Virus record (IMG/VR): IMGVR_UViG_2547132252_000005
Coordinates: 1 to 18,599 of that record
Origin: a virus
Lineage: Duplodnaviria > Heunggongvirae > Uroviricota > Caudoviricetes
Reading direction: 5' to 3' (one strand)
DNA: 18,599 nucleotides
Shown piece after piece: positions 12,951 through 13,714 of this stretch. The notes under the pieces were generated by a model, which saw nothing but the letters and a program-made list of their open reading frames with translations, made no database searches and was not told the DNA's origin. Each line of letters begins with the position of its first letter. The stretch's first letter is position 1. The translations under genes were made by a program, and so were the position numbers.

Positions 12951-13026
12951 GGCCCTTTAGCTCAGTGGTGAGAGCGAGCGACTCATAATCGCCAGGTCGC
13001 TGGTTCAAATCCAGCAAGGGCCACCA
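12951..13026 (+). tRNA. ileZ: tRNA with CAU anticodon, tRNA-Ile2 (lysidine) type
   Basis: Hand-folded cloverleaf: acceptor GGCCCTT / AAGGGCC, discriminator A, encoded CCA, anticodon loop CT-CAT-AA. Close to E. coli tRNA-Ile2 as I recall it. Confidence 0.8.
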
Positions 13027-13035
13027 TATCACATA

Positions 13036-13112
13036 CCGCCATTAGCTCATCAGGACAGAGCGCCAGCCTTCGAAGCTGGTTGCGCGGGGTTCGGGTCCCC
13101 GATGGCGGTCCA
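13036..13112 (+). tRNA. argN: tRNA-Arg (anticodon UCG)
   Basis: Acceptor CCGCCAT / ATGGCGG, anticodon stem CCAGC / GCTGG with loop CT-TCG-AA, T-arm CGGGG-TTCGGGT-CCCCG, encoded CCA. Confidence 0.75.
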
Positions 13113-13125
13113 TTATCGGTATTCA

Positions 13126-13202
13126 GCGTTGTTAGCTCAGCCGGACAGAGCAATTGCCTTCTAAGCAATCGGTCACTGGTCCGAATCCAGTACAACGCGC
13201 CA
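13126..13202 (+). tRNA. argO: tRNA-Arg (anticodon UCU)
   Basis: Acceptor GCGTTGT / ACAACGC, anticodon stem ATTGC / GCAAT with loop CT-TCT-AA, T-arm ACTGG-TCCGAAT-CCAGT, encoded CCA. Confidence 0.8.
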
Positions 13203-13472
13203 CACCACACTTATCTGCCCTGACTCTCTTTTGCGGGCTTTTTATTACAGGAAAGACACCGGACAGTGAAATGTTAAATGCCTCACAATTCAGGCAGTTG
13301 AATGTTGCCTGACATGCTGAGCGTTTGTTAAAAAAATTTCGCATGGTGAATCCCCCTGTGCGGAGGGGCAATCAGCAACCAGGTATATGTGATAATCGCG
13401 GATTCAGGTGCTGATACTGAATTCACCGGGAGGCACCCGGCACCATGCAAGAAAAAGAATGTGCATGCAAAC

Positions 13473-13499
13473 ATGCCCCTCTCCGGAGGGGCATTTTTT
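13473..13499 (+). terminator. Intrinsic terminator between the tRNA cluster and the esterase gene
   Basis: 8-bp stem ATGCCCCT (13473-13480) / AGGGGCAT (13487-13494), loop CTCCGG, followed by a T-run through 13499. Confidence 0.55.
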
Positions 13500-13714
13500 A
13501 TGGGTAAAAAATGCCCGAATGGGTTCGGGCAATAGCATGAGATACTGATATTGTTGTGTTGTTATCGTGTGGATTTTAACCAGGGTTTATCAGGCTGCGC
13601 AACTGCGTGGCCTTTTTTCATTTCTTGGGCTGTAGTCCCCGTGTGTCATTCAGGCTTCCGGACTACAGCCCACTCCATATCTGATTTAATACACTATCCC
13701 GGCCGGGAGGAATA

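Follow-up and report, generated by a model that had tools for sequence, protein, structure and literature searches.

The DNA analysed here (the window) is a stretch of 18,599 nucleotides (nt), positions 1–18,599 of IMG/VR record IMGVR_UViG_2547132252_000005. The feature under study is the interval 13203–13714, which lies between three tRNA genes and a nanS-p-type esterase gene in the late region of a lambdoid prophage, and which the original prediction described as the empty toxin slot of an arrangement typical of Shiga toxin (Stx) phages. As we read it, the order of features runs from a Q933-type antiterminator gene, the late promoter pR′, a StxS-type leader and the terminator tR′, through a DNA methylase remnant and the tRNA genes ileZ, argN and argO, to a joint of 39 base pairs (bp). 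Beyond the joint, an STnc100-family RNA encoded on the late strand converges on AgvB, an anti-sRNA (sRNA, small RNA), and a terminator-like hairpin and a conserved hairpin then precede the esterase. The locus is very probably the late-operon leader of a known toxin-less prophage at yehV/mlrA, with a cargo-less moron slot and an sRNA module that work as proposed below. Its anatomy, homologies, RNA family matches and distribution were observed directly in this study.

The Q gene (12072–12506, + strand) encodes a protein of 144 amino acids (aa) of the Q933 type, identical to the Q protein of phage 933W at 140 of 144 positions (97%), and identical loci are annotated as antiterminator Q family. A consensus scan placed pR′ at 12494–12521 (+), where it reads TTTACG-16-TATCAT and is invariant with respect to the annotated 933W pR′ and that of prophage Sp15. 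The pR′–tR′ leader homologue that follows (the StxS region; 12528–12790, +, coordinates set by homology) is near-identical to both 933W and Sp15, and contains hairpins at 12555–12574 and at ∼12760–12789, the latter being tR′. StxS has been described as a 258-nt precursor with a 74-nt processed form, and its 3′ end was mapped 258 nt downstream of PR′ (Sy et al. 2020, PMC7547250). Judging from this homology, the toxin-less prophage probably encodes a copy of StxS.

The three tRNA genes were identified by ARAGORN and the Rfam tRNA model (gathering score 29), all on the + strand. They are tRNA-Ile2 (ileZ, anticodon CAU) at 12951–13026 with 72.5 bits, tRNA-Arg (argN, UCG) at 13036–13112 with 54.0 bits and tRNA-Arg (argO, UCU) at 13126–13202 with 65.8 bits. 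Both methods find a cloverleaf and anticodon in all three genes, and an encoded CCA can be read from the sequence of each. The CAU tRNA is labelled Met by ARAGORN, tRNA-Ile by RefSeq at identical loci and ileZ in the 933W record, which names the trio ileZ-argN-argO. The trio of tRNA genes that had been recognised downstream of Q is real.

The three genes vary to different degrees. The window ileZ is identical to that of 933W over 76 of 76 positions, as are most copies in related loci to each other (42 of 45 identical), and it has a canonical T-loop. The argN gene matches its 933W counterpart at 73 of 77 positions (four differences) and occurs as 20 sequence variants among 44 copies, which, set against the near-invariant ileZ, hints at relaxed constraint on argN. 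For argO the match is 75 of 77 (two differences), and the window variant is found in 8 of 51 copies. T54, U55, C56 and A58 are conserved T-loop nucleotides of elongator tRNAs. The T-loop of the window argN (TTCGGGT) has G at position 58, and C is found at position 55 in that of argO (TCCGAAT); in 933W both genes are canonical at these positions. A literature search on ileZ, argN and argO turned up nothing relevant.

How often such a trio accompanies a toxin operon was assessed in the 80 best IMG/VR relatives of the esterase. A full trio is present in 39 of these related loci; in 19 of them it leads straight to the sRNA module, with a gap of 488–532 bp, in 12 it is followed by another insert, and in 8 by stx2. 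Because only these 8 of 39 trio-bearing loci have stx2, the trio is neither specific to nor diagnostic of Stx phages, and a tRNA trio 3′ of Q should not be counted as a Shiga toxin phage footprint. Six representatives of the 12 other-insert loci were examined, and five have a TciA/TerB-like gene. This conserved 143-aa gene, the commonest non-stx cargo in the sample, occupies the slot between tRNAs and sRNA module in many related prophages, among them L041, L060, L067, L076 and L077, and lies at 1628–2059 of L090 (ECs_1959 of Sakai prophage Sp10).

No stx coding sequence was detected in the interval, in agreement with the original prediction. Searching the whole window by tblastn with Stx1A/B and Stx2A/B (E-values up to 100) returned only chance matches, all with E > 3, and comparing the stx1 and stx2 cassette regions with 13203–13714 by blastn at a word size of 7 gave nothing significant. 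The window therefore lacks stxA and stxB between Q and the tRNAs on one side and the esterase on the other, at both the protein and the DNA level. Of the other elements of a Stx-converting late region, the Q933-type antiterminator with its pR′/qut/tR′ leader and the ileZ-argN-argO trio are present.

Alignment with known prophages allows the position of the toxin operon to be located. In the blastn comparison with 933W, window positions 12070–13243 match the Q-to-argO region upstream of stx2A with 94% identity, and 13283–15800 match from 46 bp past the stx2B stop codon through the esterase with 89% identity, so that 39 bp in the window (13244–13282) stand where 933W has 1,341 bp with stx2AB. 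The final stretch common with 933W before the stx2 cassette is a weak terminator-like hairpin 3′ of argO (13222–13245, +), which was not flagged by the terminator scan and is homologous to the 933W ‘possible rho-independent terminator upstream of the stx genes’. The homology with Sakai Sp10 likewise runs to 13243, returning at 13323 with the 143-aa TciA/TerB-like gene between. With Sp15 it ends at 12797, just past tR′ and at the start of the methylase remnant, and is back at 13269, 40 bp past stx1B. Because homology breaks and resumes at these two points, Sp15 has its stx1 block where the window has the entire tRNA module. The breakpoints shared by 933W and Sp10 therefore point to a sharp left edge of the cargo slot at 13243/13244, and the stretch from ∼13283 to the esterase appears as a conserved module that is present with or without stx. 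Judged by blastn breakpoints and alignment, then, the true toxin position would be the 39-bp joint, and not the whole 512-bp interval as had been supposed.

The likeness to Stx phages claimed for the arrangement thus holds in that the late region is homologous to that of 933W on both sides of the joint (94% and 89%), and fails in that the trio is not Stx-specific. The alignment to 933W and Sakai phages that had been suggested as a check for residual stx flanks defined the breakpoints, and revealed no stx remnant: by alignment and blastn, the 39 bp of the joint have no similarity to stx or to the immediate stx flanks. Among 5,426 complete Escherichia coli genomes, the joint was found at 769 places in 491 genomes, with 96–100% identity. 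The same joint (96–100%) was recovered in the stx-negative Stx-like phages phi296, phi315, phi367, TL-2011a and PPwrbA, together with a partial Lahn2 record. A clue to its origin comes from an Stx1c phage (phiSTEC1589-Stx1c; positions 3263–3760 of L008), where two tandem STnc100-like copies lie directly 3′ of stx1cB and the spacer between them is closely similar to the 39-bp joint. Because a similar sequence precedes an STnc100-like copy there, the comparison suggests that the sRNA module has the joint as its native 5′ flank.

These observations bear on whether a yehV ancestor carrying stx1 or stx2 recently deleted its toxin operon and left the present joint, one of the options raised by the original prediction. 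The prophage occupies the Stx1-phage site yehV, its arms are common with those of Sp15 (97.4% identity in the Q region and 94.8% in the esterase/lysis region), both flanks are homologous to Stx2 phages, and yehV phages of stx1a-negative strains have been termed ‘truncated’ in the literature (PMC8309913). However, no stx-derived sequence is present, and the joint does not consist of fused stx flanks, resembling instead the native sequence upstream of the Stx1c-phage STnc100-like copy. A joint found so widely in complete genomes, and in inducible stx-negative phages as well, also argues against a recent event. The identity with Sp15 is just ∼95–97%, and the stretch from tR′ to the sRNAs is a different module, containing the tRNAs, and not a deletion. 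Finally, chimeric queries joining the stx2B or stx1B end to the window sRNA allele found no full-length high-identity match in the 5,426 genomes, the best being 92% coverage at 91.8% identity and 89% coverage at 84.7% identity; stxB joined to the window allele thus occurs in none of them. Recent loss of stx finds no support in these comparisons, and we consider it very unlikely.

The interval had been thought to hold only hairpins and terminators. Terminator-like hairpins are indeed enriched, with 8 found in 12400–13800 against 1.3 expected, but the original prediction overlooked that they form part of two curated sRNA families, and the interval encodes a member of each. The first, on the + strand at 13312–13505, is a member of the STnc100 family and a homologue of EcOnc06/EcOnc27 (Rfam RF02076, 157.6 bits over model positions 1–206, gathering score 47), with an intrinsic terminator at 13473–13494 (+) from the terminator scan. 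The reverse complement of the published EcOnc06 northern probe matches 13385–13419 with one mismatch. The second, on the − strand at 13506–13567, is AgvB, a 62-nt anti-sRNA against GcvB (Rfam RF02702, 96.5 bits over the full length 1–62, gathering score 56). Its sequence is identical to the Rfam family consensus, its terminator lies at 13531–13512 (−), and the EcOnc01 (AgvB) northern probe matches 13531–13563 exactly. The 5′ end of AgvB reads CGAUAACAACACAACAAUAUC, which carries CACAACA, the GcvB R1 target consensus. The two RNAs converge and adjoin at 13505/13506 with their terminators abutting, Q lying upstream of the pair and the esterase downstream.

This layout corresponds closely to published work on strain Sakai. 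Tree et al. (2014, PMC4104026) described convergent pairs of Hfq-binding sRNAs between the moron cargo site, 3′ of Q/pR′, and a conserved phage open reading frame (ORF), in prophages Sp3, 4, 5, 9, 10, 11, 15 and 17. The AgvB copies, AgvB1 and AgvB2, are located in Sp10 and Sp17, and AsxR and EcOnc27 lie 3′ of stx2B in Sp5 (PMC4104026). The AgvB of Sakai is bound by Hfq, pairs with the GcvB R1 seed and relieves dppA repression, and loss of both copies lowers fitness in bovine rectal mucus (PMC4104026). The published sizes of the EcOnc06/EcOnc27-group RNAs vary by prophage, ∼177 nt (EcOnc06, Sp17) against 235/247 nt (PMC4104026). Expression, Hfq binding and the function of AgvB are taken over here from this literature, and would apply to the window copy by analogy.

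Other features of the same stretch were considered alongside the two RNAs. Placing EcOnc06 by its published Sakai coordinates would give a plus-strand RNA antisense to AgvB, which is ruled out by the position of the probe sequence on the STnc100 match; the published coordinates are offset by ∼130–140 bp from NC_002695.2. A low-threshold Rfam search of 12450–13760 gave only sub-threshold additions (AsxR with 43 bits, a GcvB-like match with 20.7 bits, and others), which we attribute to the AgvB match itself or to chance. The GcvB-like match (13471–13619, +; E 0.05) is on the other strand from AgvB. Such a match is to be expected, since the AgvB complement mimics the R1 seed of GcvB, which is rich in G and U. 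Any late read-through transcript would carry this GcvB-like seed.

It has also to be asked whether the interval is simply a non-coding terminator spacer, or contains a gene for a small protein. Several terminator-like hairpins and some short ORFs are present, and RefSeq annotates a partial ‘hypothetical protein’ pseudogene at 13331–13474 (−). On the other side, the matches to two curated RNA families far exceed the thresholds, the published probes and Hfq-binding data put sRNAs here, and the RefSeq coding sequence is flagged as incomplete and runs antisense to the STnc100 match, so that it is probably an annotation artefact. The small-ORF readings were dropped because the ORFs are short, lack support and overlap the RNA matches. 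A plain spacer or a small-protein gene is thus extremely unlikely. The practical use of the result is in annotation, the RefSeq records carrying just the partial ‘hypothetical protein’ and missing both sRNAs.

Two hairpins separate the sRNA pair from the esterase, and their conservation was examined in 24 distinct homologous esterase leaders from stx-positive and stx-negative loci. The first is a terminator-like hairpin with a T-run at 13592–13613 (+, the late-operon strand), identified by the terminator scan and folding, in which 94% of cells are paired in the homologues, with zero double changes. It overlaps a putative promoter for AgvB at 13573–13602 (−), read from the sequence, with a −10 of TAAAAT at 13578–13573 and a weak −35 of TTGCGC at 13602–13597. 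The GCGCAA of this promoter is invariant in the 24 homologues, and the promoter is absent from the consensus scan results.

The second is a hairpin in the esterase leader (13626–13672, no strand assigned), found by folding and repeat search. It corresponds to the inverted repeat that the original prediction had noted ahead of the esterase, which is real: the arms, 13626–13638 and 13660–13672, are 13 nt long, 100% complementary and 21 nt apart, and pair into a stem of 13 bp; the esterase ATG (13715) follows 43 nt after the end of the right arm. None of 200 shuffles of the region folds as well (z = −4.1). In the 24 leaders, 91% of cells in the stem are paired, against 32–43% when the partner is slid, and four pairs are changed on both sides, such as UA→CG and AU→GC in L075 and L081, these changes occurring in a minority of homologues. 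Because the structure was derived from one of the 24 sequences, this conservation gives moderate support for the stem. In other prophages the same stretch is covered by the longer minus-strand sRNAs EcOnc08/21/42. Together with the upstream terminator, the hairpin could act in cis as a regulatory leader, so far undescribed, for the nanS-p esterase.

The inverted repeat is relevant to the suggestion that the interval is an open acceptor site, in which specific sequences such as this repeat would direct site-specific insertion of stx. What speaks for such a site is that differing cargos (stx2AB, the TciA/TerB-like gene or none) share the left boundary at 13243/13244. The right boundaries vary, however (13269, 13283 and 13323), and the cargo has neither flanking direct repeats or att-like sequences nor an associated recombinase. 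Since the repeat lies ∼345 bp downstream of the joint and is found equally in stx-positive phages, it is not a feature of an acceptor site, and the hairpin is unrelated to stx acquisition. Homologous exchange, moreover, needs only conserved flanking modules. A dedicated acceptor site is therefore very unlikely, and the slot is open in no other sense than the known one of a moron slot.

Our preferred reading, a late-operon leader with a cargo-less moron slot, leads to the following working model, whose promoters, read-through and mode of exchange are inferred. Transcripts from pR′ would, in the lysogen, end at tR′. The tRNAs would be made from a promoter of their own, and the STnc100-type RNA and AgvB independently or by processing, whilst the terminator-like hairpins at 13473–13494 and 13592–13613 would keep the esterase and lysis genes silent. 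As described for Sakai, the CACAACA-containing 5′ end of AgvB would pair with the R1 seed of host GcvB and so derepress targets such as dppA. On induction, Q-modified polymerase would pass all the terminators and reach the esterase and lysis genes. The cargo position itself would be a recombinational moron slot, at which stx-positive, other-cargo and cargo-less alleles swap by homologous recombination in the flanking modules.

Several points weigh against this reading or parts of it. Expression of the STnc100-type RNA and AgvB from the window copy is predicted, and the −35 of the putative AgvB promoter fits at just three of six positions. For the STnc100-type RNA, the sole consensus promoter match is a weak one at 13309–13337, and neither the consensus scan nor hand inspection of 13244–13330, which gave no good −10/−35 pair, yielded a convincing promoter. 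Because the argN and argO substitutions fall at normally conserved T-loop positions, the function of both tRNAs is uncertain. The esterase copy is frameshifted, and therefore the late operon of the window copy may be defective, or the sequence may contain errors. Lastly, an ancient loss of stx followed by recombination could conceivably have led to the same arrangement.

The esterase gene (13715–15663, +) is of the nanS-p type (SASA/DUF6645), and its counterpart is an intact 648-aa gene in both TW14359 and CEC08123. In the window the gene is split into three frames, a 224-aa ORF from 13715 representing its 5′ part. Relative to TW14359 there is an extra G at 14363, an extra A at 14966, an extra C at 14981 and a missing A at 15048, as well as a local shift at 14689–14692. 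A search with 14930–15080 found the indels at 14966, 14981 and 15048 in none of the 5,426 complete genomes (best match 98.0% over the stretch). The frameshifts could reflect either a real pseudogene or an error in the source sequencing.

Elsewhere in the window, tR′ and the tRNAs are separated, as they are in 933W, by a C-terminal DNA methylase remnant (12797–12910, +). This remnant forms the left edge of the tRNA module and is without a counterpart in Sp15; RefSeq has a pseudogene, ‘DNA methylase, missing N-terminus’, at the corresponding position of both the TW14359 and the CEC08123 genome. In the early-right region (6430–11990), genes that take their names from the K-12 prophage DLP12 (emrE, ylcJ, the ybcK recombinase, ybcL, ybcM, ybcN, ninE, ybcO, rusA and ylcG) replace the nin region of Sp15, giving the prophage a mosaic make-up. 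At the right end, the insertion sequence IS1203/IS629 (IS3 family; 17298–18599), with an ALIL frameshifting pseudoknot at 17633–17749, interrupts the phage lysozyme gene. This IS1203 is also present in CEC08123, and many O157:H7 genomes are without the insertion.

Over its full length the window shares 99.9% identity with the CEC08123 prophage next to mlrA (yehV), and TW14359, like many further O157:H7 genomes, matches the first 17.3 kb of it. The yehV locus is the Stx1-phage site in Sakai and EDL933. A non-Stx lambda-like phage at yehV has been reported in TW14359 and other stx1a-negative strains (PMC8309913). On these matches, we identify the window as the known toxin-less lambdoid prophage at yehV/mlrA of stx1-negative O157:H7 of the TW14359 type. 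The arrangement is already known, as the cargo-less moron slot of a non-Stx O157:H7 prophage with a known sRNA pair. The feature is thus an ordinary one, because described sRNAs sit in a common toxin-less prophage; the element, the sRNAs, the moron slot and the non-Stx yehV prophage are all published, and the discovery value is small. The residual points of interest are the T-loop variants in argN and argO, the hairpin ahead of the esterase, the frameshifts within that gene and an effect in trans that the prophage may have on Stx2a phages.

As to the last of these, a 20-kb deletion in the non-Stx yehV prophage lowered induced stx2a expression 17.9-fold (PMC8309913). A tentative and rather doubtful explanation would be that the toxin-less prophage acts in trans, through its late-leader module, on the co-resident Stx2a prophage and on host sRNA networks; such an action could account for the published drop. 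The module comprises Q (97% identical to 933W Q), the StxS-type leader, the rare-codon tRNAs and a presumed additional copy of AgvB. Should the toxin-less prophage indeed modulate an Stx2a phage in the same cell by way of Q, the tRNAs or the sRNAs, this would bear on the higher toxin output of some O157:H7 clades.

Of the known systems, the non-Stx yehV prophage of TW14359 and CEC08123 is the same element (99.9%), the window having in addition the lysozyme IS1203, as in CEC08123, and esterase frameshifts that are unseen in complete genomes over 14930–15080. The convergent sRNA pairs of Sakai (Tree et al. 2014, PMC4104026) likewise lie with the cargo site on one side and the esterase ORF on the other and show the same convergent layout, and the window AgvB matches the published probe; relative to Sp17, window positions 13323–13770 are 98.7% identical. 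The window copy differs from the Sakai AgvB loci in lying in another prophage, right after a full trio and without a cargo gene, whereas in Sp10 two tRNAs and the TciA/TerB-like gene are found, and in Sp17 a gene for a membrane protein stands there without any tRNAs. With 933W the window shares the Q protein (97%), the leader and tRNA module (94%) and the stretch from after stx2B to the esterase (89%). The differences are the 39 bp that replace 1,341 bp with stx2AB, and the anti-sRNA, which is AgvB and not AsxR, the AsxR model scoring 43 bits against a gathering score of 63.

The stx-negative Stx-like phages phi296, phi315 and phi367 (vB_EcoP), TL-2011a and PPwrbA_EH2201/EC3734 are colinear with the window in Q, the trio, the same joint, the sRNA module and NanS, and have no stx, but their overall identity is ∼84–90% and their anti-sRNA is not the AgvB allele. 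The Stx1 prophage Sp15/CP-933V has the same integration site, yehV, and similar recombination, Q, esterase and lysis arms, the identity being 97.4% in the Q region and 94.8% in the esterase/lysis region, that is, ∼95–97% and not ∼100%. In Sp15, however, stx1AB comes directly after tR′ with no tRNA trio, and the immunity, replication and nin regions differ from those of the window.

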